DNA of 63,491 bases, filler included, from an uncultured bacterium (GTDB lineage: Bacteria > CAZSTA01): assembly GCA_964609495.1 (NCBI GenBank). It is 28 parts of 28 records of this genome, joined end to end, with 100 filler letters (N's around TTAATTAATTAA, not from the genome) between each part and the next. Parts side by side here need not be neighbours in the genome. Positions count along the whole stretch, not along the records: positions 10,082 to 12,415 come from CAZSTA010000316.1; positions 12,516 to 14,849 come from CAZSTA010000317.1; positions 14,950 to 17,264 come from CAZSTA010000318.1; positions 17,365 to 19,661 come from CAZSTA010000319.1; positions 19,762 to 22,058 come from CAZSTA010000320.1; positions 22,159 to 24,417 come from CAZSTA010000321.1; positions 24,518 to 26,754 come from CAZSTA010000322.1; positions 26,855 to 29,083 come from CAZSTA010000323.1; 20 more parts are not named here. One strand, written 5' to 3'. Numbering within the stretch: position 1 is the first letter of the stretch; the number at the start of each line of letters is the position of its first letter. Both the position numbers and the translations under genes were made by a program. The notes beneath the pieces are model-generated. The model worked only from the letters and a program-made list of their open reading frames with translations, was not told the origin of the DNA and did not search any database. Of the stretch, positions 12,080 through 55,741 are shown piece by piece.

Positions 12080-12293
12080 TAAGCATGTAAACTCCGTGCT
12101 GGGAAATTGAACTTCCCTTAAATCACCCTCCCCTAACCCCTCCCGTCAAGGGAGGGGGAAATAAAGAGAGCAATTCTATCTCAATGTTCCCTCTCCCCTC
12201 GTGGGAGAGGGCTAGGGTGAGGGGGAATTTATATCTTGAACTCCCTAGCGAAAAGCTACTTAAAATCTGCTAGCACAAACTTTTACATGCTTA
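12080..12293. mobile_element. Complete 214-bp MITE with about 24-bp imperfect TIRs and two internal REP-like palindromes
   Basis: TAAGCATGTAAACTCCGTGCTGG ... CTAGCACAAACTTTTACATGCTTA; internal CCCCTCCCGTCAAGGGAGGGG and CCCTCTCCCCTCGTGGGAGAGGG. Confidence 0.8.
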
Positions 12294-12310
12294 GTTTGAG
12301 AAAATAATTC

Positions 12311-12339
12311 TTGACTCTAAAACCTATTTATGCTATATT
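12311..12339 (+). promoter_or_regulatory. sigma70 promoter 17 bp from the MITE end
   Basis: TTGACT-17 bp-(TGn)TATATT. Confidence 0.7.
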
Positions 12340-12551
12340 ATAAATGGCAAATTATGAACCATAACTACTCAAGGGATGGTAAATTATGAGTGATGATAAA
12401 TGGATCACTGTTAAANNNNNNNNNNNNNNNNNNNNNNNNNNNNNNNNNNNNNNNNNNNNTTAATTAATTAANNNNNNNNNNNNNNNNNNNNNNNNNNNNN
12501 NNNNNNNNNNNNNNNCGAGGTGAATGAGGCTCATCACAAGTTAAAGGAATG

Positions 12552-13091
12552 CTACGAATCTGAGACCGATGGTTCAACTGGATGGGGGCGATTCGCGCTC
12601 CCAATACCACTCTTATCTAAATTGTGTATCTCTCGATATCGTGGATCGCTGATCAGCTTTTTCGTCCACCAGTCGATTGCCCTCACATGTCTATTAACAA
12701 CTAGATCCCCAGTTGAAGAGCAAAATCTCGCTTCTCCTGAAACATAGTGAGCTTCGGCACAATTAGGGCATCCATTATAGAGTGCCAATAAATATGAGTA
12801 ATAAGCACATCCATAGAGGAGGTTGATTCGTGGATTGAACAATTCTTGCGGGCTCTCTAACTTTGGTAAATCAAACTCCTTACGATTCATAATGGATTGG
12901 GCTGTCTGCCATAAAATTTGCATTAGCCCATAAGAAGCGTCATTTATCTGTGGCTCTTCTCTAAACGCTTGTGGATTGCCAGATGACTCCTTAAAGATTT
13001 TTGCACATATCCTCGCCTGCGATACTTGATACTTGGCACAGGCTTCCTCAATACAATCCTGATACTTCACATATATTTCAAAAGGATACAT
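12552..13091 (-). CDS. Lytic transglycosylase (SLT domain), probable phage lysin
   Basis: Catalytic KESSGNP, SYGLMQI and LFNPRINL.YG..Y motifs; GGAGG RBS before ATG 13091. Confidence 0.85.
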   Translation of the reverse strand: MYPFEIYVKYQDCIEEACAKYQVSQARICAKIFKESSGNPQAFREEPQINDASYGLMQILWQTAQSIMNRKEFDLPKLESPQELFNPRINLLYGCAYYSYLLALYNGCPNCAEAHYVSGEARFCSSTGDLVVNRHVRAIDWWTKKLISDPRYREIHNLDKSGIGSANRPHPVEPSVSDS

Positions 13092-13119
13092 TTTATCCCT
13101 CCTAATTTCTATCTTCAAA

Positions 13120-14849
13120 TTACCTAACTCTAAGGAATCTGGGCCTTATAGTCGCAGATACTGAGAGAGTATCAGCGATGTTGTTCACGAACGATCCTCT
13201 ATCGACCGAGACGAAGAAGCGATTGCGGCGATAGGCTTCGGGATGAAATTCCCCAGCGATAAGTTCTCCTCTTTCATCCTTAGGATAGATATTTCCGCTT
13301 GATTCGTAACCTATAATATAATCTGATTTTCCTATAGTTGACATAACTAGGTAGTAGTTGTTAGCCCAATCACCATCAGAGGAGAATAGTCCGATCTCCT
13401 CATCAATGGGGAGTAGAAGGAGATAATCGACTCCTACGTGTGACGTTGAGGTTGTAGACTCTATTGTGATCCAATAAGTAGCTGTGCCTCTCTCTGCATT
13501 TCCTTCCTTATCTAGGGGCGGGTATTCTACTTCTCCTAAATCAACTATACACCAGTCATCGGATATATCGGCATAAACCTGATCATTCTCAAATTCTCCA
13601 TCGGCGCCCCATTTGACTCTTATCTTGTGCATTATCGCGGAGAAATTCTTCACTCTGGCGAAAGCTCGGAACTTGCCTATTTGATCGGATAGGTTTGTTG
13701 CTTGCTCGAACTTTAGATATTTCTCGCTTGTAGCGGTCGCGATCTTCGCGTATTTTCCACCACTGCAAGCGCCATCATCCTCCTTTGTTACTGTTCCGTC
13801 TGTTGCTACATAATCTTCTCCCTCGAATACATGGACAAAGTTATCCGCGTCTCCATAAGATCTTATCGCGAAACGACCTTCATCGTAACTATTTGTGCCT
13901 TGAGTATTCTTCAGGAATATCCTCATCTGAGCGGGAAGATCTCCCGGGATATTTAAGAGATCTGTGTAATTACGGTGCGTCGCGGAGTCGGAGTGATTGT
14001 AGAGGGTCTCGCGATTTATGAATGGCAGTTCGGTATATCCCCTTCTCGCATGATAGAGATGGGACGCCTCATCGGCGGATAGCTCGACATCCCAAATCCG
14101 CAGGTCGAAGATCGTTCCTCTTGCTTGCGAGTTTCCCGCGTTCGTCGATCCTAAGAAGAGCCAATCGCCAAGGGAGGCAGGAACGGTAAAGGAATCGGTA
14201 TCACCGATAAGGACTCCATCTCGATATATCTTCCTTCCCGATGATCCCCAAGTGAAGACTAGATGGATCAGATCTCCCGCGGAGAAGGTTTGAGCAGAGC
14301 TTGTCAGATCACCAGTGCCATCTCCGAATACGAAGCTATCTGAGGATTCGCTGTAGAACATCCGAAGGGCAGAACTTCCTTGAGAGGTATCGAGGAGATA
14401 GCGCGAAGTCCCATAAGTATAATCCTCCTGGGGCTTCCACCATAGGGAGAGTGTTCCTGCGGTCTTGGAGATATTGCCAGTGGTTGGATATTTCAAGGTA
14501 TCCGTTCCGGTGATGATAACTCCATCCTCCTCGAGGCTCAGATCGCCATTGGCGACCCCAACACTCATCTCCTCTCCATATCCGAAAGGCTCACAATATA
14601 AGGTGAGCTTGATCCCCCCTAACCTCTCCTTTTGCCAATCGTTGTTGGGGAATCCTCGCAATAGTTTTGTTTCCCCCTGCAATATCCGAAAGCGAATCTC
14701 TCCTCTTCCGAAGATTGGGGCGGTGCCGACTCCCTCACTCCAGCGGTAATGAAGGAAACTATCCTCGAAGGATGTATCGAGGGATAGGAAGAAGTCCTCC
14801 AAATCCCTGATCTTCTTCAACAGATCAGCCTGTCCTGTTCCCTGGATAT
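13120..14849 (-). CDS. Phage tail-like protein with a LamG/concanavalin domain (5' truncated)
   Basis: Distal-tail-like N-terminus (LTLYCEPFGYG), LamG motifs GTLSLWWKP, HLVFTW, DLRIWD.ELS; adjacent to the SLT gene. Confidence 0.65.
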
Positions 14850-14965
14850 NNNNNNNNNNNNNNNNNNNNNNNNNNNNNNNNNNNNNNNNNNNNTTAATTA
14901 ATTAANNNNNNNNNNNNNNNNNNNNNNNNNNNNNNNNNNNNNNNNNNNNCTATCGCTATCCGCTT

Positions 14966-15421
14966 TCAATATATCTCAATATCCCTATCTTTATTTTCGT
15001 CTCCACTTGGTAGATATCTATTTTTCTCTTGTATAGCTGATATGATCTCCTCTATGATCTCCTCTACACTTTGTCGATCTAGGGGTATATGTCGATCCTC
15101 TCCTCTTGGGAGGCTCTGATAAGGGTTATAGGGGATAGTTTGAGGATGGTTTCGATCTCCTCCACCGACCACAATAATATTTGTCTTGGGTTGAGAGTTC
15201 GCATTCTCGGTAACACACCCGCTATAGACTACCAGCACTGCAACTACAAAGCCTAGTATGCCAATTGCTATCGCTCCGTCATGTAAGGTAAAAGCTATCC
15301 TCATACTTCCATAATATTCTGCCACTGACGATATCCCTAAGCATAAAGCTGATAAGATAAGGAAGAAGATAGTTACTCCGATCCCTCGTCCGACTGCTGT
15401 CAAATATCTCATAAAATTCAC
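14966..15421 (-). CDS. 2-TM membrane protein of FtsK cassette 1
   Basis: Two TM helices; clear homolog of 46612-46884. Confidence 0.75.
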   Translation of the reverse strand: MNFMRYLTAVGRGIGVTIFFLILSALCLGISSVAEYYGSMRIAFTLHDGAIAIGILGFVVAVLVVYSGCVTENANSQPKTNIIVVGGGDRNHPQTIPYNPYQSLPRGEDRHIPLDRQSVEEIIEEIISAIQEKNRYLPSGDENKDRDIEIY

Positions 15422-15475
15422 CTCTTTTTTTGAAAAATTCGATACATAAAACCAGATAACTAACTGATAAGAAAG

Positions 15476-16831
15476 CTAGGATATACCAGCTTTTTCTCTG
15501 GTTACCTCTTGAGAGTAACCAGTATCTAACCGATCAGCTCCTCTAACCAGTTCCTCTAACCGATCATAATTGATAGGAGAGGGTAAATTCGGAGCTTCCT
15601 TACCTCCTAATATCCCAAGATCCTCTAATTCTTTTAAAAGCTCTAGTGATCTCGGTTGTGAAAAATTCAATTTCTTTATCAAAATACTTTTCGATATCCC
15701 CTTATCTTTTCCTCTATCACTCATAAGATATATCCTTATCCTCTCTGGTAAAGCCTCAAATTTTTGGATATCCCTAAGATCGGATATATCCCCAAGCTCT
15801 TGGACATCCTCTTGAGGTGGGATATGCTCTCTTTTCTCAATTTGCAATTTAGGGGATATGTCATCTAAGGGGATATTCACTCTTGCATACCCTCTATGGT
15901 TTAAAAGGTATGCCTCCCCTATCCTCAATTTGCTACAGTCTATTCCTGGAGTATTTGATAAGGTGGTGGACTCTCGCTTGGAATGGACTCTAAAGATGAT
16001 TCTGGAGATAATATTCTCTCTGATAATAGGGGAGTTGCTAAGATTCTCTTTTTTACTACTTTGCATAGCTAGGATAAGGTGTATCCTCTCTGATCTACCC
16101 TTCATAGCAACCTGCTCTATATATCCCTTAGAGGTATCAGATAGAGCCACTAGGGAATTGACCTCGTCCAAGATAACTAGGATCGGATATTTGTTTTCCT
16201 TCCCTCTGGATCTACTCTCCATAACCCCTATGATCTCAGATAGGGATATCTCTATATCCCTTATCTCTTTTATGGTCTGTCCATATCTCAATTGAGAGAC
16301 CCCTTTGAATTGATCTAAGTCAGTTTTAGGAGAGTATATCACAAGGGATATAGCCTGCTCTTTATCCCTTATTACAATTTGGGATATGATATTAGAGAGC
16401 AGGTTGCTTTTTCCGGATCCACTACTACCAGCTATTATAATGTGAGGATTCTTATCCCCAATATTGAGTAAAATTAGGGAATTAAAGATATCCGATCCTA
16501 TGAGAATTTTAAGGGGATTCTGATATATCTCTTTATGCTCATTCTCAAGTCTCTGGAGTAGAGTTGATAAAGATATATTCTCTCTATGATCTTTATTTAT
16601 TATGAGATGATATCGCCCCTTGCCTTGCTCTAGTGATATATCCTTATCGGTTATCCCTAACCACATAGATATCCGATCCTCTAATTTAGATATATCCCTA
16701 GCTTGCCTTATATCTGGAATGATAGGGATGGTGATAGTAGCTGGAGATATGATCTCTTTATCTAGCTTGCAATTGATCTTGTAGATATCGAAAAGATCAT
16801 ATAATTTTTGATAGATATATCTCAAGTCCAT
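15476..16831 (-). CDS. Soluble FtsK/SpoIIIE-domain ATPase with a gamma-like C-terminus
   Basis: PHIIIAGSSGSGKS, LVILDEV, KGRSERIHLILAMQ; C-terminal ISKSIL.KKL...PRS.ELL.ELE..GIL; no TM segment. Confidence 0.88.
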   Translation of the reverse strand: MDLRYIYQKLYDLFDIYKINCKLDKEIISPATITIPIIPDIRQARDISKLEDRISMWLGITDKDISLEQGKGRYHLIINKDHRENISLSTLLQRLENEHKEIYQNPLKILIGSDIFNSLILLNIGDKNPHIIIAGSSGSGKSNLLSNIISQIVIRDKEQAISLVIYSPKTDLDQFKGVSQLRYGQTIKEIRDIEISLSEIIGVMESRSRGKENKYPILVILDEVNSLVALSDTSKGYIEQVAMKGRSERIHLILAMQSSKKENLSNSPIIRENIISRIIFRVHSKRESTTLSNTPGIDCSKLRIGEAYLLNHRGYARVNIPLDDISPKLQIEKREHIPPQEDVQELGDISDLRDIQKFEALPERIRIYLMSDRGKDKGISKSILIKKLNFSQPRSLELLKELEDLGILGGKEAPNLPSPINYDRLEELVRGADRLDTGYSQEVTREKAGIS

Positions 16832-17364: not shown

Positions 17365-17468
17365 AGCTCTATCTCGATGTCCCCTCTCCCCTCGTGGGAG
17401 AGGGCCAGGGTGAGGGGGAGTTATAATTCGATCTGAAATCATTTTGATCCCCGATTCTATATGCATCC
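17365..17468. repeat. Repeat-family copy with ATGCATCC-type terminus
   Basis: CCCTCTCCCCTCGTGGGAGAGGG core; ends TATATGCATCC. Confidence 0.8.
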
Positions 17469-17485: not shown

Positions 17486-17514
17486 TTGACTTCCATCATA
17501 CCTTGTGTTATAAT
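17486..17514 (+). promoter_or_regulatory. sigma70 promoter 17 bp from the repeat end
   Basis: TTGACT-17 bp-(TGn)TATAAT. Confidence 0.8.
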
Positions 17515-22004: not shown

Positions 22005-22058
22005 GGATGCATATAAAATCTGGGATCTAAGATCTAATTTACTTTGTATTACACCCTC
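22005..22058. repeat. Repeat-family terminus (GGATGCAT type)
   Basis: Reverse complement of about 59737-59790. Confidence 0.8.
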
Positions 22059-26854: not shown

Positions 26855-26954
26855 GTTCAATCTCAGTGTTCCCTCTCCCCTCGTGGGAGAGGGATAGGGT
26901 GAGGGGGGATTATATCTTGATAAAAATCTGTTAGCCCGGATTTTTACATGCTTA
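26855..26954. repeat. Repeat-family copy with CATGCTTA terminus
   Basis: Core palindrome plus TTTTACATGCTTA. Confidence 0.85.
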
Positions 26955-26971
26955 CTTCTATTTAAAAGGTC

Positions 26972-27000
26972 TTGACATTTAGATACTTCTGATCTATAAT
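26972..27000 (+). promoter_or_regulatory. Consensus sigma70 promoter 17 bp from the repeat end
   Basis: TTGACA-17 bp-TATAAT. Confidence 0.88.
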
Positions 27001-40273: not shown

Positions 40274-40282
40274 TAGATTCTG

Positions 40283-40626: not shown

Positions 40627-40628
40627 AT

Positions 40629-42344: not shown

Positions 42345-42535
42345 TAGAAATATTTCATCAATTCATCTTGATAGATCTCATGGCCTTCATCGTTAGGGTG
42401 ATGTCCTCCACTATCATAATCATTAAGGAGCTCCGATAGAGGAGTCCCAGAATCTATGATACTACGAAAGGCCGCATGGACATCTACTAATCCAACTGAG
42501 ATTCCGTTAGCTAGGGATCTAGCTTCATTATTATA
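42344..42535 (-). CDS. SGNH/GDSL hydrolase C-terminus (5' truncated)
   Basis: YN...R.LA...LVDVHAAF...HHPNDEGH. Confidence 0.7.
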   Translation of the reverse strand, partial: YNNEARSLANGISVGLVDVHAAFRSIIDSGTPLSELLNDYDSGGHHPNDEGHEIYQDELMKYF

Positions 42536-42664
42536 NNNNNNNNNNNNNNNNNNNNNNNNNNNNNNNNNNNNNNNNNNNNTTAATTAATTAANNNNNNNNN
42601 NNNNNNNNNNNNNNNNNNNNNNNNNNNNNNNNNNNGATTCTGCGTGCTTAGCCAAGGTTTCAAA

Positions 42665-42818
42665 TTTAAATCACCCTCCCATCGAGGGAGTGGGAAATAG
42701 AAGGATCAGTTCTATCTGGATGTTCCCTCTCCCCTGGTGGGAGAGGGATAGGGTGGGGGGGAAATTATTTCTTTCGCTCATTAGATTAGTCTAGCGCACC
42801 TTATGCGGATATGAGCGA
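42665..42818. repeat. Repeat-family copy with a third terminus type
   Basis: Both palindromes, then TTAGATTAGTCTAGCGCACCTTATGCGGATATGAGCG, an inverse match to about 48923-48960. Confidence 0.8.
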
Positions 42819-42963
42819 ATATATTTAAGTTCGCTTATAGTGAGATTTTCTCTGAGAGATAAAAGATAACATTTTAAAATGAAAGGGAGAAAAGAGTTTT
42901 GAAGACGAGTCTAACCCTCTTCTCCTTTCACTCACTCTTTTCACCTTTGCGATCTACCGAGTC

Positions 42964-44469: not shown

Positions 44470-44582
44470 ATTATAGCCCCCCTTAAAAGCAGGGATAGTT
44501 TGGTAATTATCAAGCTCATTTCCGATAAGATGAATGCTGAGGATCTTCAAGCCATATTCCCATAACGATGATACTATATAAT

Positions 44583-44611
44583 ATTATATCACAAAATAAA
44601 AATTTTGTCTA
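44583..44611 (-). promoter_or_regulatory. sigma70 promoter 18 bp from the repeat end
   Basis: TAGACA-17 bp-(TGn)TATAAT on the minus strand. Confidence 0.8.
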
Positions 44612-44629
44612 GAAAAAAATACTATGGAG

Positions 44630-44722
44630 TAAGCATGTAGAATATCGTGCTAGCGGTTTTGAACTCCCTTAAATCACCCTCCCCTAACCCCTCCCGTCAA
44701 GGGAGGGGAAACTGAAGAGAGC
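44630..44722. repeat. Repeat-family copy (TAAGCATG terminus)
   Basis: TAAGCATGTAGAATATCGTGCTAG...CCCCTCCCGTCAAGGGAGGGG. Confidence 0.85.
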
Positions 44723-44921
44723 NNNNNNNNNNNNNNNNNNNNNNNNNNNNNNNNNNNNNNNNNNNNTTAATTAATTAANNNNNNNNNNNNNNNNNNNNNN
44801 NNNNNNNNNNNNNNNNNNNNNNACACCTATCCCCTCTATAGAGGCGAATCGAGACAAGTTAGAGCGCAAGTGGAAAGTAGGCAAATACAAAGCTGATAGA
44901 GCTAGTTAAGAGGAGTAAGAA

Positions 44922-45116
44922 ATGGTCGAAATTCTAAGAAATATTACATCAGATAATATTTTAGCAATCCTTATTTTTGGACTCTTAGGACTAGGTTGCG
45001 CATTTCCCGTGTCTTGGGTCATCATTTCATTGTTACAGCGAAAAGACGATCAAAATGACATCGGATCCAAAATCGTCGATACTATAATTGTAATAAATGA
45101 TAAGGGAGCGATATAG
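44922..45116 (+). CDS. Small single-TM protein of FtsK cassette 2
   Basis: GAGGAG RBS; hydrophobic stretch. Confidence 0.65.
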   Translation: MVEILRNITSDNILAILIFGLLGLGCAFPVSWVIISLLQRKDDQNDIGSKIVDTIIVINDKGAI

Positions 45117-45119
45117 AAA

Positions 45120-46484
45120 ATGGAGAATCTTAGATCAATATATCAGCGAATCTATGAACTCTTAGATCTCTATTCTATAAATGCAAAATTAGGAAAAGAG
45201 AGGATCGGAGTCTCAACGATCACAATCCCTATATACCCCGATATCCGAAAAGCTAAGATCCTTAGTAATTTAGAGACCGAATTATCACTTTATCTAGGTT
45301 GTAATGTATCGCTGGTCAGAGGTCCGGGTCGCTATGATATAATAATTCCTAGATTTGAAAAAAAAGAATTAAAACTCTCAAAACTACTCTCAAGATTGCA
45401 GAGAATAGACAAAGCTATATATAATGATCCCTTAACACTAGTTTTAGGTGTAAATCATCGGAATCAGTTAATAGTAATTAAGATCGGCACTCCTCAAATA
45501 CCACACTTAGCGATTCTAGGCTCTAGTGGGAGCGGTAAGACAGAATCCCTACGCTCTATCCTATATCAGCTTAACGATATGAGTAAAGTAATCTATACCC
45601 CTAAGACTGATCTTGACGCTTTTCGACGCTCCGAGCAACTACTCTATGGAGATATCGCTAAAGAGATATCGGATTTTGAGACTATCCTTAGCGACCTAGT
45701 CGCCACTATGAATTTGAGAGCTAAAACTAGAAAACACAAAAGCCCGATCCTACTGATAATTGACGAACTTACATCTCTTTTAGCTAGATCAGATAAAGCT
45801 ACTTTTCTATTAGAGCGACTGAGCGAACGGGGTCGGAGTGAAAATATAATTCTTATTTTGGCTACTCAAAGCGGTAAAAAAACGGTATTTGGCAACAGTG
45901 ATGTGCTGAGGGAAAATATAACTACTCGACTTTGCTTTCGCACTATGAATAAGCGAGAATCTACTACCATAAGCGGTAATTCAGATATTGATTGCTCTAA
46001 CCTAGAGGTAGGAGAGGCGATTCTGGTAGGATCGAGCAGATCTCAAACGATATCTACCCCACTTTGCGATCAGCTCGGAGACGGGGATAGGACTTATGAG
46101 AATATCCTCTACTCACCCTTGCAGGTCGTTAAAGGCGGGCTTGACCAGTCTGGACAAAAAAACGCAAAGGATATAGATGAGCTTGGGGATATCCGAAAAT
46201 TTGAGAATTTACCAGAGAAAATAAAAAAATATCTCTTGAGTGATAGAGGAAAAGAGCAAGGTATATCGAAAAGTATATTGGTAAAGGAATTAGACCAGTC
46301 TCAACCTCGATCACTTGAGATATTAAGGGAATTAGATCAGCTTGAGATCTTAGGGGATAAGAAAGCTCCGAATTTACCCTCTCCGATCAATTCGGATCGG
46401 TTAGGGGAACTGGTTAGAGGGGTTGATCGGTTAAGTGCTGGTTATCCCCAAGAGCTAACCAGTGAAAAAGCTGGTATATCCTAG
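45120..46484 (+). CDS. Soluble FtsK/SpoIIIE-domain ATPase, paralog of 15476-16831
   Basis: PHLAILGSSGSGKT, LLIIDEL, RGRSENIILILATQ; gamma-like C-terminus nearly identical to cassette 1. Confidence 0.88.
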   Translation: MENLRSIYQRIYELLDLYSINAKLGKERIGVSTITIPIYPDIRKAKILSNLETELSLYLGCNVSLVRGPGRYDIIIPRFEKKELKLSKLLSRLQRIDKAIYNDPLTLVLGVNHRNQLIVIKIGTPQIPHLAILGSSGSGKTESLRSILYQLNDMSKVIYTPKTDLDAFRRSEQLLYGDIAKEISDFETILSDLVATMNLRAKTRKHKSPILLIIDELTSLLARSDKATFLLERLSERGRSENIILILATQSGKKTVFGNSDVLRENITTRLCFRTMNKRESTTISGNSDIDCSNLEVGEAILVGSSRSQTISTPLCDQLGDGDRTYENILYSPLQVVKGGLDQSGQKNAKDIDELGDIRKFENLPEKIKKYLLSDRGKEQGISKSILVKELDQSQPRSLEILRELDQLEILGDKKAPNLPSPINSDRLGELVRGVDRLSAGYPQELTSEKAGIS

Positions 46485-46611
46485 CTTTCCTATCAGTTAA
46501 TTAAATGATCAAAATTCGGTGCTTTGAGAGTTGAAAGTAATAGGATCTAATCAAATATTAAAAAACTAACCAGAGAAAATAAACCTTAAAACAAAGGATG
46601 GTGAATCAAAA

Positions 46612-46884
46612 ATGAGATATTTAGTTGCAGTCGGTCGAGGCGTCGGAGTAGCATTGCTTTTTCTATTCTTAGCGACTTTGTGTTTAGGTGCGAGCGCTAT
46701 CGCAGAGCATTATAACAATATACGACTTGCTTATACCTTTCATGACGGAGGAATCGCTATAGGAATCTTAGGCTTGGTGATATCGACTCTCGTAGTTTTT
46801 AGCGGTTGTGTAACTGCTAACGCTGAATCTATGAACAGTAAATCCTCCGAGCCTAGAATCATCATTATTAACGGAAAAGAGATT
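46612..46884 (+). CDS. 2-TM membrane protein (3' truncated), homolog of 14966-15421
   Basis: MRYL.AVGRG.GV...HDG.IAIGILG...SGCVT.NA shared. Confidence 0.75.
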
Positions 46885-46984
46885 NNNNNNNNNNNNNNNN
46901 NNNNNNNNNNNNNNNNNNNNNNNNNNNNTTAATTAATTAANNNNNNNNNNNNNNNNNNNNNNNNNNNNNNNNNNNNNNNNNNNN

Positions 46985-47625
46985 CGGGTTGTGCTTTGAT
47001 AGGCGGAGAGACCGCGGAACTGCAAGAGTTCTACAAAGAGAGGGAATATGACCTCGCTGGTTTTGCCGTGGGTATAGTCGAGCGAGAGGAGATCATAGAT
47101 GGGTCTAAGATCTCCCCTGGGGATAAGATCGTTGGGCTAGCAGGGAATGGATTACATAGCAGTGGTTATTCTCTAGTGCGAAAAGTTTTACTAGAGGTAG
47201 CGGAGTTCGATATAACCGCTTATATTCCGCTGTTGGGAAGAACCTTAGGGGAGGAATTGCTAGAACCAACCAAGATTTATGTAAACTTAATACATAGTTT
47301 ACTACCCGACTTCTCTCTAAAGGGGATCGCCAATATAACTGGTGGTGGATTTCCTGATAACATCGTTCGGATACTTCCCCTAGGGGTTAAGGCGGTTATA
47401 GATAGGGGTAGATGGGAAGTTCCTCCAATATTCGATCTGGTCCGTAAGGAGGGAAATATCCGAGAGACGGAGATGTTCAGGGTATTCAATATGGGGATCG
47501 GGATGATCTTAGTAGTCCCAGAGGAGGAGGCGAAGGCTGTAGCAACTAAGGTAGAGGAGAGGGGAGAGAGGGCTTATATCATAGGTCACATAGAGGAAGG
47601 AGAGCGAGGGGTGATAATAAAGTGA
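46985..47625 (+). CDS. purM: AIR synthase PurM (5' truncated)
   Basis: LIGGETAE, YDLAGFAVG, ITGGG, FNMGIG. Confidence 0.96.
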
Positions 47626-48230
47626 TCAACATAGGGATCTTAGTTTCGGGCCGAGGCAGTAATATGGAGGCGATAATCAAGGCTTGTGAGGATGGCAGGA
47701 TCGAGGGGAGGGTTGTAGTTGTCATAAGCGATGTAGAGGACGCTTATGCCTTAGAGCGAGCGAGAAGGCATAATGTCGAGGCGGTCTATATCGCTTCTGG
47801 GAATTATAGGGCTATCTTAGGGAGAAAAGCTGAGGAGGGGTATGTAGCTTGCCTCAAGGAACACAAAGTCGATCTACTCGCCTTAGCTGGATTTATGCGG
47901 ATGATCAAAAAGCCTCTATTCAATGCTTTTAGGGGAAGGATATTGAATATTCATCCTTCGCTTCTTCCCTCTTTCCCAGGCTTGGAGGCTCAAAAACAGG
48001 CTTTAGAATATGGCGTTAAAGTATCTGGTTGCACGGTTCATTTCGTGGATGAGGGGATGGATGCCGGTCCTATAATCATCCAAGCGGTGGTGCCAGTTAG
48101 GGATGATGATACGGTGGAGAGCCTATCCGAGCGCATCTTAAAGGAGGAACATAGAATCTATCCCGAGGCGATAAAGTTGGTTAGCGAGGGGAGGGTCGGA
48201 GTTGAGGGGAGAAGGGTGATAATAGTTTAG
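47622..48230 (+). CDS. purN: GAR formyltransferase PurN
   Basis: SGRGSN, LAGFMR, NIHPSLLP, DAGPII. Confidence 0.97.
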   Translation: MINIGILVSGRGSNMEAIIKACEDGRIEGRVVVVISDVEDAYALERARRHNVEAVYIASGNYRAILGRKAEEGYVACLKEHKVDLLALAGFMRMIKKPLFNAFRGRILNIHPSLLPSFPGLEAQKQALEYGVKVSGCTVHFVDEGMDAGPIIIQAVVPVRDDDTVESLSERILKEEHRIYPEAIKLVSEGRVGVEGRRVIIV

Positions 48231-48306
48231 CAAGGCATTGACATTGTCGATAAAGATCGGTTATAATGATATTAATGAAGATATTTAAGCGAAAGAAGGG
48301 AATTTA

Positions 48307-48855
48307 ATGAAGAGAATATCCTTACTCGTAGTAGTATTGACACCCTTGATATTTCTTATCTTCACCAATTGTTTAGCTCAAGATAGCGAAGCCTCTGCCG
48401 ATAAGGAAGCTGAAAAAACTCCCGCCGAGCGTTTGCAGGAGGCGAAGGGGTTCTCCGCCTTGAAGAGCAGATATCCAGCTTTGGATCCTGCCAAGGCCTC
48501 TATCGTAGGGAAGAAGGATGAAGAGGATAAAGGAATAGTGATCACTTCCTTGGGAGCTCCTCTTCCCGATCTAACTCAAGCCAATGAGAATTGGACTCCC
48601 TACCTGGGAGTGGAGATGAACGACAATGCCTATCTAGTTAGGATAAGGAATCTTCAGGGTGAATATCCTGAGGAGGAGATATATATCCTCCAACTTCAAC
48701 TCGTCTTCTTTGAAGAAGGAGGAGGTATGAAAGGAAGTATTCCTCAAAATTTCGTGGTCAGAGTTCCTGAAGGATTGACTATTGAAGAGGTGATGAGGAA
48801 ACGCTTTCTTGATAGCACTGATATAATCAACGCTATTAAGAGCGCTACGTTCTAA
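48307..48855 (+). CDS. Secreted hypothetical protein
   Basis: Signal peptide; own promoter TTGACA(48238)-18 bp-TATAAT. Confidence 0.7.
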   Translation: MKRISLLVVVLTPLIFLIFTNCLAQDSEASADKEAEKTPAERLQEAKGFSALKSRYPALDPAKASIVGKKDEEDKGIVITSLGAPLPDLTQANENWTPYLGVEMNDNAYLVRIRNLQGEYPEEEIYILQLQLVFFEEGGGMKGSIPQNFVVRVPEGLTIEEVMRKRFLDSTDIINAIKSATF

Positions 48856-48922
48856 CCCAGCTTTGATAGATAGAGGAATTGCTCTGAGTTAGGAAACCTC
48901 ACGCAGGGGTATTAAAGAAGAA

Positions 48923-49041
48923 CGCCCATATTCGCATAAGATGCGCTAGACCGATCTAATATGAGTGAAGGGAGTAATTTTCCCCCTCACCCTAGCCCTC
49001 TCCCACGAGGGGAGAGGGAACATCCAGATAGAACTACTCTT
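48923..49041. repeat. Repeat-family copy
   Basis: Inverse match to 42705-42818. Confidence 0.8.
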
Positions 49042-49141
49042 NNNNNNNNNNNNNNNNNNNNNNNNNNNNNNNNNNNNNNNNNNNNTTAATTAATTAANNN
49101 NNNNNNNNNNNNNNNNNNNNNNNNNNNNNNNNNNNNNNNNN

Positions 49142-49310
49142 CTAAAGCCCTTTAGTCCCCCCTCCCTCGATGGGAGGGGGTTAGGGGGAGGGTGATAATT
49201 AACAAGATTCTTTGATAACCTTATTAATTCAGCAAGAACCAAGACGGGAGGGGTTAAGGGGGGTGATTTAAGGGAAGTTCAATTTCCCAGCACGGAGTTT
49301 TACATGCTTA
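49142..49310. repeat. Repeat-family copy with a duplicated arm and CATGCTTA terminus
   Basis: Inverse match to 12080-12147, with an extra module shared with 57856-57905. Confidence 0.85.
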
Positions 49311-49318
49311 CAAATCGC

Positions 49319-49348
49319 TTGACATAGACAGTTAGAAAATGATATAAT
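49319..49348 (+). promoter_or_regulatory. sigma70 promoter 8 bp from the repeat end
   Basis: TTGACA-18 bp-(TGn)TATAAT. Confidence 0.8.
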
Positions 49349-49383
49349 AACCTTAGCGAATCTATAAGAAGAGATATAGAGCT

Positions 49384-50979
49384 ATGAGCCTCAAAGTAGA
49401 AAATATTTTTCACCCCCGCTTCATAATCTCCTATCTTCTATATTTTACTTTAACTCTCTTAATAGGATTGTCAATGACTGTATCTGGGCCAGGAGTTAGT
49501 CCTGATTCCGTTTGGTATATAAGTGCGGCAGAGAATCTGCTTAAAGGAAAAGGGTTAGCTGGAAGTATAACCGCTTCCTTGGATATATCGGAACTTACCC
49601 CCTACTCCGCTTGGCCCCCTCTATATCCTCTCTCGATAGCTTTCCTCTCTTCCCTAAAACTAGATTCGACCTCGGCCGCCAGATTCTGCTCGATTCTACC
49701 CTTCGCGTTCCTGATGATTCCCCTATTTATGATGGGAGTTTTAATCTCCAATTCTAAGGTAGCTCATCTGAGTTGTATTACTTGTATGTTTTTAACTCCT
49801 TTAGTATCTGTCTCCACCTATGCTTGGCCCGAATCTTTATATATCTTCCTCTCCAGCTTGGCGATACTGTCCTTGTTGCTCTTCACCCAACGGACTGGAG
49901 TGAGAAGTGGATTCGCCTTTCTTCTAAGCGGACTCTTCATCAGTTTAGCCATTCTAACTCGATATATCGGGATTACACTCCTGCTTATGGGGATAATCGC
50001 GATATTTCTCAAAGATAGGAGGATAAATACCAGAAATATTAGAAGGATCATAGCTCTAGGTGTAATATCGCTTTTACCAGTGAGTATTTGGTTTATTAGA
50101 AATATTCGGGTTACTGGTTCTCTCTGGGGAATATCACGTCCTACTGTCACCTATGGTCTGCTCGACAATCTCGCTCTTCTCTCGAAAACGCTGATAGCTG
50201 ATCTTCTCCCCTCTCCTAGTCCTGCCCTTCAATCCAGTTGGGATAAGATCACTCCTCATCTCACCTTAATATTTATAGCTATTTTGGTCATTATATTTAT
50301 AATTTCTCTAATTATCTCTCCTTCCCCAAGAAGTAGGTTGAAACTATTTCTCTCGAACAGTCTGGTTCTATTACTATATGGACCTATATATCTTTTGAGC
50401 TTGTTATTTTTAAGATCCACAATGGGTTTTCAAAACTTTGAGACGCGCTTAATAACTTCATCTTACCCCTTTTTAGTAATTTCATCGATCTCGCTCTTTT
50501 ATATCGTTCTGCGTTATATGAGGGGAAATAGAATTAAATTATATATAAGTAGCTTATCCATACTACTCTTCTTGCTCTTTTTATCTTTTCAGATTTTGCA
50601 CACTCTCCGTTACTACAATTATGCAAAAGATGGGCAAGTATATACCAACATCGTTTGGAGGGAAGACGAAGCTATCCAATGGATCAAGGATAATACTGAC
50701 CCCCAAGATCACATTTATAGCAATTATGCTGATGCAGTTCATTTTCTAACTAAGAGATCGGTCAAATATCTCCCCTTTAGAGGTGCGGAGGAATCCGTCA
50801 GATATTTCTTTGCCAAAGAGAGAGGAACTGTGAGGACTTACGTGATCGCTCTTAAGGAAGTTGGTTGGAAAGGGTACGTGCTTACTAATGATGACATCAT
50901 GGAGAACAATAAAAAGTATAAGACCCTATTTGTTATTAAGGATTTTCCTCGAGCGGTAATCTATAAATTCAAGCAGTAA
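49384..50979 (+). CDS. GT-C (ArnT/PMT-like) glycosyltransferase
   Basis: SPDSVWY, WPPLYP, E.LY, RYIG motifs; polytopic. Confidence 0.8.
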   Translation: MSLKVENIFHPRFIISYLLYFTLTLLIGLSMTVSGPGVSPDSVWYISAAENLLKGKGLAGSITASLDISELTPYSAWPPLYPLSIAFLSSLKLDSTSAARFCSILPFAFLMIPLFMMGVLISNSKVAHLSCITCMFLTPLVSVSTYAWPESLYIFLSSLAILSLLLFTQRTGVRSGFAFLLSGLFISLAILTRYIGITLLLMGIIAIFLKDRRINTRNIRRIIALGVISLLPVSIWFIRNIRVTGSLWGISRPTVTYGLLDNLALLSKTLIADLLPSPSPALQSSWDKITPHLTLIFIAILVIIFIISLIISPSPRSRLKLFLSNSLVLLLYGPIYLLSLLFLRSTMGFQNFETRLITSSYPFLVISSISLFYIVLRYMRGNRIKLYISSLSILLFLLFLSFQILHTLRYYNYAKDGQVYTNIVWREDEAIQWIKDNTDPQDHIYSNYADAVHFLTKRSVKYLPFRGAEESVRYFFAKERGTVRTYVIALKEVGWKGYVLTNDDIMENNKKYKTLFVIKDFPRAVIYKFKQ

Positions 50980-51047
50980 GGCCCAATAGGAAGAAAAAAT
51001 TGGAGGTGGTAGTGAGGCTGGCGAAAATCCCTTGGGTATGCTATATT

Positions 51048-51195
51048 GGTCTTTGAGCAGATAATCGGAGTATCATATTCTTAGTTTTTCACTAAGGGAG
51101 TTCAAGATATGATTTTCCCCCTCACCCTATCCCTCTCCCACGAGGGGAGAGGGAACACTGAGATTGAACTAAAGCCCTTTAGTCCCCCCTCCCTT
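51048..51195. repeat. Repeat-family copy with GGTCTTTGAGC terminus
   Basis: Inverse match to about 55135-55234 and 57935-58073. Confidence 0.85.
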
Positions 51196-51295
51196 NNNNN
51201 NNNNNNNNNNNNNNNNNNNNNNNNNNNNNNNNNNNNNNNTTAATTAATTAANNNNNNNNNNNNNNNNNNNNNNNNNNNNNNNNNNNNNNNNNNNN

Positions 51296-51531
51296 GAACT
51301 CAACTAGGACAAATCTTAGAGAGAGTATCAGAAAATAAGGAGCGATTTCTTATAAAAAGAAGAGGAAAACCTACCGCAGTAATTTTAGGAATAGAGGACT
51401 ACCTGAAGAATGTAATTAAACAGCCTGATGCATTAACGAAGTTGCAGAAACAGACGGAAAAAAGCGGAGCAAATAGAATGACTTTAGAGGAGATAGAGGA
51501 GGAAATTAAGGCGGTAAGGAAAGGACACTAA
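51296..51531 (+). CDS. Phd/YefM-family antitoxin (5' truncated)
   Basis: Manual translation TQLGQILERV...FLIKRRGKPTAVILGIEDY...MTLEEIEEEIKAVR. Confidence 0.75.
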
Positions 51532-51535
51532 GCCT

Positions 51536-51619
51536 ATGATAAGGGTAGTCTTCGATACCAATGTGGTAATCTCAGCCGCACTTAAAGAAGGAAGTTTACA
51601 ATCGCTCATATCGGAGTAG
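51536..51619 (+). pseudogene. PIN-domain toxin N-terminal stub
   Basis: MIRVVFDTNVVISAAL...* after 27 aa. Confidence 0.75.
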
Positions 51620-51899
51620 CGTACATAGCTAAGGTAGCTTGAATTTCTATCAGCTATGATAAATCTCATCCAGGAGACGGTTGAACGACAATTCTGGCAG
51701 ATCAACCTAGAGCTCCCTATGTCAATATGAGCGATCTAAATATACTCTAACTTAGCACCAGAGTAGGTTAGAGAAGCCTATGATAAGGATATAGGTTTGA
51801 GTGAACTTATTCCCTACTTCTGCACAAACATCTTGACAAAAACTAAATCATTTGTTATTATAGTAATAAATAATACTGTAGTAATTTATAAGGATTGCT

Positions 51900-52736
51900 A
51901 TGACTCTAACAAATACTAAAACTCTATCGGGAAGAGAAACTAAACTTCTTGCTACCTTGAGTAGTCAAGGAAAGATTATCTTCTCCTCTGCTGAGGCTAA
52001 AGAGGTCTTAAAAGAAGAAACTTGCTATGTAAAGCAAGTGCTTTATAATTTGAAGACTAAAGGATGGCTAAAAAGGTTAGAGAGAGGAAAGTATTTGATT
52101 ATTCCTCTTGAGGCAGGACTAGAAGGAGAGTGGTCAGAAGAGCCTTTTGTTATCGCTTCCCATCTGGTAAAACCTTATGCTATCTCTTACTGGTCAGCCC
52201 TGAACTTCTGGCAGTTTACTGAACAGATACCTCGAACTATCTTTGTAAGTTCCCCTACTCAGAGTAGAAAATACAGTGAGAAGGAGATTTTAGGTATTCC
52301 TTTCAAATTTGTGGTAGTGAAAAAGGAAAAGTTCTTTGGTATTACTAAGATATGGATGGGAAGTCATAAGGTTTGTATTACAGATGAGGAGAAAACACTT
52401 ATTGATTGCCTAGACCATCCTGAATACTGCGGAGGAATTGTTGAAGCCTGTAAAGGATTGTGGAATGGATATAAAGAAGGGATAGATTGGTCAAAACTCA
52501 GTGATTATGCTTATAGGATAGGAAAGAAGGCAGTCTTAAAAAGATTAGGTTATCTAGCGGAGCTCTTGGAGTTACCTATCCCTGACTACCTATCTAAGTG
52601 GAGAGATGATATTTCCTCAAGTTCGAGTTATGAGAAGCTAGACCCGACTTTACCAAAGAAGGGAAGATATATTTCTCGCTGGAAGTTACAGCTTAATATT
52701 GATAAATACGATTTAATCAACTGGAAGGAAGAGTGA
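51900..52736 (+). CDS. Type IV TA antitoxin AbiEi-family transcriptional regulator
   Basis: GWLKRLERGKY, ISYWSAL...TEQIP, EKTLIDC. Confidence 0.88.
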   Translation: MTLTNTKTLSGRETKLLATLSSQGKIIFSSAEAKEVLKEETCYVKQVLYNLKTKGWLKRLERGKYLIIPLEAGLEGEWSEEPFVIASHLVKPYAISYWSALNFWQFTEQIPRTIFVSSPTQSRKYSEKEILGIPFKFVVVKKEKFFGITKIWMGSHKVCITDEEKTLIDCLDHPEYCGGIVEACKGLWNGYKEGIDWSKLSDYAYRIGKKAVLKRLGYLAELLELPIPDYLSKWRDDISSSSSYEKLDPTLPKKGRYISRWKLQLNIDKYDLINWKEE

Positions 52737-53343
52737 TCGACCTTAGAGAGCTTAAACAAAAATCAGAAAGACTAGGATTAGATATCTCAACTATTGAGAG
52801 AGATTATGCTTTAAGTTGGGCTCTTTTTGGAATATACTCCAGCCCTCTCTTAGCGAAAGCTCTGGTTCTTAAAGGAGGGACAGCCTTAAAGAAGATATAC
52901 TTTGAGAATTATCGGTTTTCACAAGATTTGGATTTTACTGTGAGATTTAAGGATATTTCTGAGCAGGACTTACAAAATAATCTAGTATCTGCTGCTAGAG
53001 AGGCAGAGAAAGCTTCAGGATTAGAGTTTGAGCTTATTTCCTTAGAGAAGATTAGGGATATACCACAAGAGGAAGCGTATGAAGGCAAGATTGCCTTTGT
53101 TGGTCCGAGAAGACAGAAAAGAAGACCAGCCCGAATTAAGCTTGATATCACCTTTTATGAAGAAGTAATGCTGTCTCCATATAATCTTTCTCTAATCCAT
53201 CCTTATTCTGACCGAGAGGATTGCCAGATAATAATACCTGTCTATAGATTAGAGGAGATAATAGCTGAGAAGCTGAGAGCCCTATTAAGAAGGATTAGAG
53301 CTAGGGACTTATACGATATTTGGTATCTACTCAAGTTTGCTCA
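52733..53343 (+). CDS. AbiEii/AbiGii nucleotidyltransferase toxin (3' truncated by the contig end)
   Basis: ERDY, LKGGTAL, RFSQDLDF, AEKLRA, RARDLYD. Confidence 0.9.
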
Positions 53344-53567
53344 NNNNNNNNNNNNNNNNNNNNNNNNNNNNNNNNNNNNNNNNNNNNTTAATTAATTAAN
53401 NNNNNNNNNNNNNNNNNNNNNNNNNNNNNNNNNNNNNNNNNNNAGGGATAAGGACATCTATGTCCTTGAGATTATGTTCCCTGGCTCCTTTAACAAATAT
53501 GGCGTCTGGCATGATGCTTTATTGTAGCATCACTGCTCATGTGGCTCAAAGAAAAGCTAAGGATAAC

Positions 53568-53921
53568 GCTGGCAATAAAGCTCAACCGATATCAACCACC
53601 TTCAAAGTGGAAGAAATAGTAGGAGAAGCGAGGGTCATCCGGGTGCTGAATTATCCTAACCCAGTTAAAGATGGAACTTACTTTACTTATACTCTCTGTA
53701 CTGAGGCGGATGAGGTTAAGATTGAGGTCTTTAATATAGCTGGAGAGCGAGTAAGAACCCTAGAAGATGCTCCAACAGATCCCGGCTTTAACAAAGTCTT
53801 CTGGGATATGATGGACGATGATGCAGAAGAAGTAGCTAATGGACTATACTTCTACCGACTGACGGCGAAATTTACGGATATGAAGGTAGAAAAGATAGGA
53901 AAGATAGCGGTAGCGAAGTAA
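53568..53921 (+). CDS. C-terminal FlgD-Ig / T9SS-type-A-like sorting domain (fragment)
   Basis: AKDNAGN...NYPNP...IEVFNIAGERVRTL...WD...ANGLYFY; true 5' end unclear. Confidence 0.75.
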   Translation, partial: AGNKAQPISTTFKVEEIVGEARVIRVLNYPNPVKDGTYFTYTLCTEADEVKIEVFNIAGERVRTLEDAPTDPGFNKVFWDMMDDDAEEVANGLYFYRLTAKFTDMKVEKIGKIAVAK

Positions 53922-53996
53922 ATAAGTGAAGGAGAGGTTGTCAGATGATAACCTCTCCTCAAAGTTCTAACCATAGCCAGGAAAAGGAGGAAAGAG

Positions 53997-54926
53997 ATGG
54001 AGCTATCAGCAATAAAGAGAGGGAAATTAATTATCATTCTATTGATAGTAGTAGTTTTAGCTGGAAGCTCAACAGCGATGGCCAATAAAGATACGGGAGC
54101 CTTCTTGCGAATAGGAGCTGGAGCTAGGCCCCTAGGTATGGGAGGAGCTTTCGTCGCTATCGCTGATGATGCCAGCGCTACCTATTGGAATCCAGCAGGG
54201 TTAGCTCAGTTGGATAGGATCGAGATAAGCAGTATGTATAATGATCAATTCGGATTAGATATTGACTATAGCTTTATATCTTATACTCAACCTTTGGGCA
54301 ACCAAACTGTAGGATTGAGTTGGATAATGCTAGCAGTGGGAGATATCCCAAAAGTAGAGCAAGCTAGTGAGGATGGGAAGCCGATAGTAGTCGGATATAT
54401 AGAGGATGCGGAGAATGCTATTCTCCTCTCCTATGGGCGGAAGATAACTGAGGATATCTATGCAGGTGCTAACCTCAAGTTTATCTCTCAATTCTTAGGG
54501 GATGACAATTCCAGTGGTTTTGGATTTGACGCGGGAGCTTTATATAAAACCCCTATCGAAAATTTAACCTTAGGGTTGATGCTTCAGGATATAGCAAGCA
54601 GTGTTACCTGGAGTACCGAGAGTGAAAAAACTGAGGATCTTCCTATGCTAACGAAGGTAGGAGTATCCTACAAACTATTAGACGATACTCTAACCCTATC
54701 AGCGGAAGTGGATAACGGACCGAGAGGGAGTGAATTCAAGGGAGGACTGGAGTACTGGTATGCCAAAACGGTCGCACTTCGCTTGGGAATCTCAGGGGAG
54801 AATCTAACCGCTGGAGCTGGGGTAAGGTATAGTCCCAGCAAGAGGGTCTCTTTAGGTTTCGATTATGCTTTCTTGTCCCACGAACTGGGTGACACCCATC
54901 GCTTATCTTTGGGTATTAAATTGTGA
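53997..54926 (+). CDS. PorV/PorQ-family outer-membrane beta-barrel
   Basis: FLRIGAGARPLGMGGAF.A.ADDASA.YWNPAGL; C-terminal DYAF...LGDTHRLS. Confidence 0.88.
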   Translation: MELSAIKRGKLIIILLIVVVLAGSSTAMANKDTGAFLRIGAGARPLGMGGAFVAIADDASATYWNPAGLAQLDRIEISSMYNDQFGLDIDYSFISYTQPLGNQTVGLSWIMLAVGDIPKVEQASEDGKPIVVGYIEDAENAILLSYGRKITEDIYAGANLKFISQFLGDDNSSGFGFDAGALYKTPIENLTLGLMLQDIASSVTWSTESEKTEDLPMLTKVGVSYKLLDDTLTLSAEVDNGPRGSEFKGGLEYWYAKTVALRLGISGENLTAGAGVRYSPSKRVSLGFDYAFLSHELGDTHRLSLGIKL

Positions 54927-54956
54927 TGATCATTCTGATATGCTAATCAGATATAG

Positions 54957-54993
54957 ATGAGCATACGAGATATCTCGTATGCTCATTTCTTTT
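54957..54993 (+). terminator. Rho-independent terminator
   Basis: ATGAGCATACGAGA-TA-TCTCGTATGCTCAT followed by TTCTTTT. Confidence 0.8.
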
Positions 54994-55011
54994 CCGGTAT
55001 AATTCCACTAG

Positions 55012-55234
55012 ATCACCCTCCCCTAACCCCTCCCGTCAAGGGAGGGGGAAATAAAGAGAGCAGTCTTATCTGGTGTCCCCTAAAAGGTAACTTTTTTGCT
55101 TCAAATAGAACTCATGGTTAAAAAAGTTACCTTTTTCCCCTCGTGGGAGAGGGCTAGGGTGAGGGGGGATTTATATCTTGAACTCCCTAGCGAAAAGCTA
55201 AGAATATGATACTCCGATTAGAAGCTCAAAGACC
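55012..55234. repeat. Repeat-family copy with a nested ~55-bp mini-element (55081-55135)
   Basis: Matches 12123-12258; the core is interrupted by AAAAGGTAACTTTTT...AAAAAGTTACCTTTT. Confidence 0.85.
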
Positions 55235-55243
55235 AAATAGGCA

Positions 55244-55448
55244 CTATTCCCTACCCAATGTCTCTCTAACTAGATTCAAAGCCTCTTCCCTAGAGGAGAT
55301 CATACCTTCAAGCTGAGCCTGTTCAACAACCCCTAATAGCACTCCTACTAAAGGACCACTCTCTAGCTTGAATTCGTCAATTAAATCCTTCCCTGATATC
55401 AACTTAGGAAATTTATCTTTCTTATTCTCCATCTCATAGCAATAAGCT
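55244..55448 (-). CDS. CCA-adding/poly(A) polymerase-family C-terminus (5' truncated)
   Basis: LISGKDLI..F.L.SGP.VG.LL..V.QAQ.EG.I.SREEAL. Confidence 0.75.
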
Positions 55449-55548
55449 NNNNNNNNNNNNNNNNNNNNNNNNNNNNNNNNNNNNNNNNNNNNTTAATTAA
55501 TTAANNNNNNNNNNNNNNNNNNNNNNNNNNNNNNNNNNNNNNNNNNNN

Positions 55549-55695
55549 ATGAGTTCTATTTGAAGCAAAAAAGTTACCTTTTAGGGAACATCGAGATAAG
55601 CTCCATCTCTTTAGTTCCCCTCCCTCGACGGGAGGGGCTAGGGGAGGATGATTTAAGGAAATTCAAATCTGCTAGCACGATATTCTACATGCTTA
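55549..55695. repeat. Repeat-family copy with nested mini-element and CATGCTTA terminus
   Basis: AAAAAAGTTACCTTTT, palindrome, then CTAGCACGATATTCTACATGCTTA. Confidence 0.85.
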
Positions 55696-55712
55696 CTGAG
55701 GTATAGCCATAC

Positions 55713-55741
55713 TTGACAATGAGTCTCAATTTAGCTATAAT
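55713..55741 (+). promoter_or_regulatory. Consensus sigma70 promoter 17 bp from the repeat end
   Basis: TTGACA-17 bp-TATAAT. Confidence 0.88.

Follow-up and report, generated by a model that had tools for sequence, protein, structure and literature searches.

Several bacterial mobile elements insert at a set distance from promoters. TnGBS and related insertion sequences, for instance, target sigma-A promoters and come to lie 15–17 bases upstream of the −35 box (Guerillot et al. 2014, PMC3942029), a habit that for TnGBS and ISLre2 is credited there to Brochet et al. 2009 and Guerillot et al. 2013. According to the text of that article, promoter detection in the TnGBS/ISLre2 family peaks 16 bp from the right repeat, the same distance peak is reported for related transposases across many hosts, and the same preference is seen in thirteen insertion sequences of the ISKra4 group, which have promoters at either side as a result of repeats that are 83–100% complementary. 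The elements carry repeats of 18–39 bp with a terminal cytosine and are flanked by direct repeats of 8 or 9 bp, a circular intermediate is thought to serve their transposition, and the authors proposed a contact with the RNA polymerase initiation complex (PMC3942029). Here we analyze short repeats with a similar habit in 63,491 nt of DNA from an uncultured bacterium (GCA_964609495.1), the whole of which is called the window. These repeats are very probably miniature inverted-repeat transposable elements (MITEs) of an insertion sequence of the UPF0236/ISKra4-ISLre2 type (prokaryotic Mutator-like DDE transposases), docked upstream of −35 boxes.

The window consists of 28 contigs, sorted by length from 2,443 down to 1,841 bases and separated by 27 spacers of the form N44-TTAATTAATTAA-N44. 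Ten of its twelve repeat ends come from elements that a contig boundary truncates, and the assembly evidently broke within them; repeat edges are therefore over-represented in the window, from which no genome-wide frequency is readable.

Repeat tips and their distance to predicted promoters

The repeat tips are marked by two related words. CATGCTTA occurs ten times in the window against 1.83 expected, a count reached by none of 100 shuffles, and ATGCATCC four times against 1.49 expected, which alone is not significant. Extended similarity identified 12 of these 14 matches as true repeat ends; the other two, at 9207 and 56945, lie inside coding sequence and were discarded as chance matches. Both tip types align to each other (TTTTACATGCTTAC and TTTTATATGCATCC), each ending in C, and the conserved terminal block spans about 32–36 nt; C is the terminal base at 10 of the 12 ends in the window, and the ATGCATCC-type tips have it too. 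The interiors of the elements are 80–95% identical between copies. In an Rfam search of the window, a tRNA-Leu was the only match.

To measure docking, the distance d was taken as the number of bases between the terminal C of the tip and the start of the best-matching TTGACA-N16-18-TATAAT site, and an end was scored as having no promoter when no site with up to 3 mismatches was found within 40 nt of the tip. Promoters are throughout predicted from the match to the TTGACA/TATAAT consensus. By this measure, 7 of the 12 window ends face a near-consensus TTGACA-N17-TATAAT promoter at d = 16–17. As background, positions and orientations drawn at random from the non-coding part of the window were scored for a site with up to 2 mismatches at 15–19 nt; the probability is 0.0047 per window end, and 7 docked ends among 12 have a binomial tail of 4e-14.

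The distance is 16 nt at the tips ending at 12294 (promoter TTGACT-N17-TATATT at 12311–12339, plus strand), 26955 (element end 26855–26955; promoter 26972–27000, before an ABC permease gene) and 55696 (55549–55696; promoter 55713–55741, PAS histidine kinase gene). It is 17 nt at 17468 (17365–17468; promoter 17486–17514, Ig-like surface protein gene), 22005 (22005–22058; promoter 21987–21959, phoU), 38060 (38060–38132; promoter 38042–38014, AMMECR1 gene) and 44629 (44629–44722; promoter 44611–44583, DnaB-like gene). Two ends lie closer to their promoters, with d = 8 at 40282 (40282–40336; promoter 40273–40245) and d = 7 at 49311 (49142–49311; promoter 49319–49348, PMT_2 glycosyltransferase gene), and three, at 209, 12079 and 59790 (the last closing the element end 59639–59790), have no promoter site outside. 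Among these incomplete MITE ends, those at 17365, 26855, 49142, 55549 and 59639 are on the plus strand and cut by the contig start, those at 22005, 38060, 40282 and 44629 are on the minus strand and cut by the contig end, and the tips at 17468, 22005 and 59790 are of the ATGCATCC type. Both MITE tip types face promoters, as expected of near-perfect inverted repeats.

An earlier note on this DNA, made from the sequence alone, had listed nine promoters beside repeat ends, and all nine exist as it gave them, with 0–2 mismatches in total to TTGACA/TATAAT and spacers of 17–18. Its fixed-distance pattern stands too; only its values of 17 and 18 for the CATGCTTA-type tips become one less when counted from the terminal C. 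The same note had seen no obvious promoter at 208, 12080 and 59790, in agreement with our three promoter-less ends.

The rule was also measured outside the window. A scan of metagenome contigs, whose pattern held the tip and nothing beyond it (the terminal C was itself demanded by the pattern, promoter content was not), returned 49 loci, of which nine are true members of the family: L019, L023, L044, L045, L050, L051, L052, L059 and L066. After setting aside L023, which duplicates L019, the left end of L045, which is identical to window 55549–55697, and one end with a flank of only 30 nt, nine metagenome ends were evaluable, which together with the twelve of the window make 21 non-redundant ends. 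Seven of the nine are docked at d = 15–18 (15 at the right end of L045; 16 at L019− and L050; 17 at L051, L059 and L066; 18 at L052), with a tail of 1e-11 against a background of 0.016, and two, L019+ and L044+, have no promoter. As the pattern stopped at the tip, the metagenome copies are an unbiased replication of the distance rule. The tip pattern was run as well against one genome from each of 185,579 species, where it gave 17 single matches in unrelated taxa, none with extended similarity; these are chance matches, and the docking family was not found in those genomes.

Over all 21 ends, 14 lie at d = 15–18 (1, 5, 7 and 1 ends at 15, 16, 17 and 18 nt, respectively), which bears out the earlier claim of a mobile element whose insertion is directed to a constant position upstream of sigma-70-type promoters of the host. 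Promoter-targeting p-MULT elements are recognized by a promoter 13–17 bp from the junction of repeat and genome in more than 20% of insertions; here thirteen of the 21 ends fall at 15–17 nt, and 12 of the 16 docked ends are exactly at 16 or 17 nt. The two ends at 7–8 nt are exactly one duplication length closer, about one helical turn from the main class, and could represent a second register or the later loss of a duplicated copy; the far ends of both elements fall off-contig.

The docked sites look like ordinary promoters of this organism, since a comparable consensus site also precedes the tRNA-Leu at 3261, where there is no element. Open reading frames (ORFs) on the same strand start 33–150 nt past the −10 box of the docked promoters, and an independent promoter scan of 36004–55800 returned 8 sites that agree with the consensus at 11 or 12 of 12 positions, 5 of them adjacent to an element. 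The downstream ORFs encode different kinds of protein (those named above and a Cache sensor), so that the genes are unrelated, as had been claimed. A perfect TTGACA-N17-TATAAT promoter on the minus strand at 59494–59538 has its −35 box starting 16 nt from the contig end; this is the sole contig boundary with such a site, and it gives a mere hint that another element may abut the contig end near 59538.

Insertion marks and an autonomous relative

The MITEs of this family are non-coding elements of about 215–230 bp, with GC-rich hairpin modules between near-perfect inverted repeats of about 35 bp that end in C. Eleven of the window ends belong to them, and their tips match those of the autonomous element described below. 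The only complete copy in the window, at 12079–12294 (216 bp), has 35-nt inverted repeats at 12079–12113 and 12260–12294 enclosing two GC-rich hairpin modules, overlaps no ORF of at least 80 aa, and folds into one long hairpin (−92.9 kcal/mol, z = −7.75). It is flanked on the plus strand by a target-site duplication, TTTGGGAAA at 12070–12078 and TTTGAGAAA at 12295–12303, whose copies are identical at 8 of 9 positions and abut both tips; 7 nt separate the right copy from the −35 box.

A second complete MITE (about 231 bp) was obtained from the metagenome. Positions 1–149 of L045 are 100% identical to window 55549–55697, and the locus supplies the remainder of that element, which sits between two divergent promoters, that of the histidine kinase gene at d = 16 and that of an ATP synthase alpha/beta-family gene at d = 15. 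Its flanks, ATACCTCA and TAACCTCA, are identical at 6 of 8 positions. In the empty site, about 23 bp would thus have separated the two −35 boxes, and the target would have been midway between them.

Three elements could be examined with both flanks, giving direct repeats of 9 bp (8/9 identical) and 8 bp (6/8) in the MITEs and none in L019. The duplicated copy sits outside the tip and within the 16-nt gap, i.e. between the tip and the −35 box, and neither these gaps nor the spacers of the promoters show similarity between copies. The promoters are therefore host DNA and not part of the element, as the earlier note had proposed. Contigs of four DNA runs were also compared with 10082–12415, and among them none joined the flanks across the MITE and none spanned the stretch, so that no empty-site allele was seen. 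A circle junction was not seen among the contigs either, although no search was aimed at one.

The earlier note had asked for an autonomous element with the same inverted repeats, and one was found in L019, a contig of 1,779 nt in which inverted repeats at 142–174 and 1624–1658 enclose two overlapping ORFs of 124 and 347 aa, the insertion sequence being about 1.5 kb long. Over about 24 nt, its tips have the same sequence as the MITE tip at 12294. PF06782 (UPF0236) matches the ORFs with 71.9 bits (cut-off 24.3), their best NCBIfam model is NF033572, of the ISKra4 family (170.2 and 44.5 bits over the two ORFs), and the second best is ISLre2 (145.8 bits). Because both ORFs align colinearly to a single relative of 442 aa (to its residues 24–102 and 106–439), they are one transposase gene split by a +1 frameshift. 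A DWYH motif in this transposase fits the D(2)H signature as described in the text of PMC3942029.

The two tips of the insertion sequence behave differently: in L019 the transposase-distal tip is docked at d = 16, and the transposase-proximal tip lacks a promoter at three different insertion sites (window 209, L019+ and L044+). The first of these closes a plus-strand segment at 1–209, without hairpin modules, with an inverted repeat at 177–209 and its terminal C at 209. This segment, matched with nhmmer, aligns over its full length, with a mean column identity of 77%, to L019 and L044 at their transposase-proximal ends, and therefore the window holds the end of such an insertion sequence. Directly outside it, at 330–530, lies a fragment of an IS3-type integrase (rve), which suggests nested mobile elements.

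Other observations concern the surroundings and the cargo of the MITEs. The promoter-less left tip of the complete copy adjoins a terminator-like hairpin, CCACAGG...CCTGTGG at 11985–12030, with a T-run on the minus strand, upstream of a polysaccharide-export gene. The hairpins of the MITE itself were considered as intrinsic terminators and dropped, as no T-run follows them. In L051, a solo inverted repeat of about 28 nt (134–220) stands between two divergent consensus promoters, 17 nt away on its outer side and about 8 nt on its inner side, and may be what an element left behind when it was excised or deleted.

The GC-rich hairpin modules (cores such as GGGAGAGGG-NN-AGGGTGAGGGG), located at 12110–12265 in the complete MITE, are found without docking tips at 42674–42784, 48977–49040, 51082–51195, 55003–55210, 57806–58038, 61700–61830 and 63185–63313. 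In four metagenome runs their contig depth sums to 700–2,969 and they have many distinct flanks, whereas the unique DNA alongside has a depth of about 4.7. A 22-nt hairpin pattern occurred eight times in the L013 genome (Desulfobacteraceae) and once in the L001 genome (Planctomycetota), and not at all in reversed controls; the module looks like a cross-phylum repeat in its own right. A second kind of repeat end (...CTAGCGAAAAGCT-AGAATATGATACTCCGAT...GCTCAAAGACC) is joined to the same modules at 51040–51080, 55185–55235 and 58020–58075, and may belong to a different MITE family sharing the cargo.

Competing explanations and other features of the window

One alternative is that the tip motif of about 32 nt is a cis-regulatory site of the host, such as that of a class-I-type activator or an insulator near −64, the phase of which is kept by selection while the repeat is a mere carrier. 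The loose palindrome in the motif (AGCAC...ATGCT), the helical turn between the two distance classes and the solo copy between divergent promoters in L051 would all suit an operator, and the earlier note had itself offered a regulator site as one possible reading of the terminus. This idea nevertheless fails on the identity of the motif, which is the inverted repeat of an insertion sequence encoding a transposase, so that the tip is a transposase-binding end. Moreover, 5 of the 21 ends bearing the motif have no promoter, target duplications lie between the motif and the −35 box, and the downstream genes are functionally unrelated, unlike those of a regulon. We consider a host operator very improbable, although a tip bound by transposase could influence the promoter after insertion. 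About equally improbable is that the elements insert at random and that purifying selection keeps the copies just outside promoters in very short intergenic regions. The genes are indeed tightly packed, and an element that hit a gene or a core promoter would not persist; such selection, however, predicts a lower bound on the distance and not a peak with three quarters of the docked ends at 16 or 17 nt, and the same peak is published for related transposases in many hosts (text of PMC3942029). Least credible of all, to the point of being negligible, is a mobile cassette made of tip, spacer, −35 and −10 boxes. Hexamers and spacing do recur beside the repeat, as a cassette would require, but the 16-nt gap and the 17-nt spacer are dissimilar between copies whose interiors are 80–95% identical, the duplication at 12295–12303 has its partner beyond the other tip, so that the −35 box belongs to the host, and equally strong promoters exist without any element, for example that of the tRNA-Leu at 3261.

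Against these alternatives, the docking of MITEs by a Mutator-like transposase is by far the most probable explanation, in spite of several points that weigh against it. Five of the 21 ends lack a promoter (209, 12079, 59790, L019+ and L044+), and two stand at 7–8 nt, a register absent from the text of PMC3942029. L019 has no target duplication, which could be due to recombination between copies or to a chimeric short contig. No intact helper transposase was seen, the gene in L019 being frameshifted, and each of its ORFs alone is under the NCBIfam curated cut-off of 205 bits. In a search of 5.8 billion proteins the relatives of this transposase, apart from a copy at 99%, were at most 35% identical, the nearest at 34–35%. 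Finally, its placement in the promoter-targeting subgroup of ISKra4, and not with ISAzba1 or ISMich2, would follow from behavior and not from phylogeny or from the published signature motif, which has a conserved Asp between domains N1 and N2.

Other identities of the tips were rejected. Elements of the IS200/IS605 type, such as palindrome-associated transposable elements (PATEs) or repetitive extragenic palindromes with their associated transposases (REP/RAYT), have subterminal hairpins instead of inverted repeats, insert 3' of a TTAC-like word and make no duplication. They were considered here on account of the TTAC in the tip and of a TnpB gene in the window, and are ruled out by the 35-bp inverted repeats and the 8–9-bp duplications. 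Resemblances of the tip to a sigma-54 box or to the operator CIRCE were dropped on spacing, and that to a GTAAGC end of IS66 type was superseded by the Pfam and NCBIfam results.

The TnpB gene just mentioned has no link to the docking repeat ends. It occupies 5328–6506 within an IS605-type segment at 5285–6506 (OrfB_IS605, with a Cas12f1-like TNB domain), with a 3' hairpin at 5285–5316, and the ORF upstream of it (6547–6936) encodes a nucleotidyltransferase, not TnpA. Elsewhere in the window, 33779–35902 carries cas4, cas1 and cas2 followed by an array of clustered regularly interspaced short palindromic repeats (CRISPR) with three 38-nt repeats (35718–35902) that reaches the contig end. Two genes for FtsK/SpoIIIE-like ATPases (451 and 454 aa) lie on different contigs, and their segments at 15457–15791 and 46169–46503 are 82% identical over 335 nt in inverted orientation.

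Proposed mechanism and comparison with known systems

The distance rule, the anatomy of repeats and duplications, the repeats shared by MITEs and insertion sequence, and the transposase family are direct observations. The mechanism that we propose takes further steps from the family, as described in the text of PMC3942029. By analogy, the transposase would be supplied in trans to the MITEs and would bind the tips that they share with the insertion sequence. The element would then be excised or copied as a circle and integrated where the transposase meets the initiation complex bound to a promoter, or the −35 box itself. A staggered cut at about −51 to −43, in the UP-element zone, would leave the core promoter intact and avoid genes. 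The 8–9 bp duplicated have their inner edge 7–8 bp upstream of the −35 box, so that the tip ends 15–18 nt from it. With inverted repeats so nearly alike, either tip can face the promoter, and an element can land midway between back-to-back promoters.

The earlier note knew of no bacterial MITE with this rule, which implied a novel behavior; the position 15–17 bp upstream of the −35 box is, on the contrary, a published property of the TnGBS/ISLre2 and ISKra4 groups (text of PMC3942029). That RNA polymerase at the promoter would position the insertion, as the earlier note suggested, is likewise the hypothesis put forward for this transposase group in the Discussion of PMC3942029. The distance rule and the proposed mechanism are accordingly not new, and the current understanding of transposon targeting is unchanged. 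What is new is the non-autonomous MITE form, in an uncultured marsh-sediment bacterium: the literature searched, which included the text of PMC3942029, described no MITE of the TnGBS, ISKra4, ISLre2 or p-MULT kind. A bolder view, which we put forward tentatively and regard as doubtful, is that this is the first MITE lineage to exploit Mutator-like promoter docking, in a marsh or marine-sediment host outside those listed in the published text, and with three features absent from that text, i.e. the register of 7–8 nt, the insertion midway between −35 boxes about 23 bp apart, and a hairpin cargo found across phyla. If so, whichever side of the staggered cut it approaches from, the transposase may read the −35 box or else a subunit of the polymerase, and the MITE would be a tiny natural substrate to study the recognition of promoters by a transposase.

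More generally, raw sequence led independently to a known safe-harbor strategy of transposons, parking just upstream of promoters, which is extended here to MITEs and to an uncultured sediment lineage. The tips flag promoter positions in a genome for which there are no transcript data, and the elements explain why this assembly is broken up at intergenic regions. A small element combined with the intact transposase of a relative would be a convenient system to ask whether RNA polymerase or the −35 box is recognized.

The closest of the known systems is the ISKra4 group (p-MULT 4 in the text of PMC3942029), which shares with the elements described here the best NCBIfam match of L019, near-perfect repeats ending in C and promoters beside either end at about 16 nt, to which imperfect duplications of 8–9 bp add in two of the three elements with both flanks. 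Differences are that the copies here are mostly MITEs, about 220 bp long and non-coding, with a cargo of GC-rich hairpins, that the transposase is at most 35% identical, and that a register of 7–8 nt is added. The TnGBS integrative and conjugative elements and ISLre2 (p-MULT 3) coincide in the distance of 15–17 bp from the −35 box of sigma-A promoters and in a DDE Mutator-like transposase, whereas, as the same text describes them, they insert in a fixed orientation, with the right inverted repeat (IRr) by the promoter and dissymmetric repeats, in contrast with the docking of both MITE tips here; their described hosts are mainly Firmicutes, and TnGBS is a large conjugative element (PMC3942029). 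An analogy with yeast Ty3, drawn in that article, holds for the insertion a fixed few bases upstream of the transcription start, the contact with the transcription initiation machinery and the safe harbor so gained. Ty3 is nevertheless a eukaryotic long terminal repeat (LTR) retroelement whose integrase uses TFIIIB/TFIIIC at Pol III genes, and only the DDE fold is common to both. Correia elements, and ends of insertion sequences with an outward −35 box, are short inverted-repeat elements beside promoters that make or modify these promoters by their own sequence. In the cases described here, by contrast, the host supplies the whole promoter, and the element only stands off at a fixed distance.

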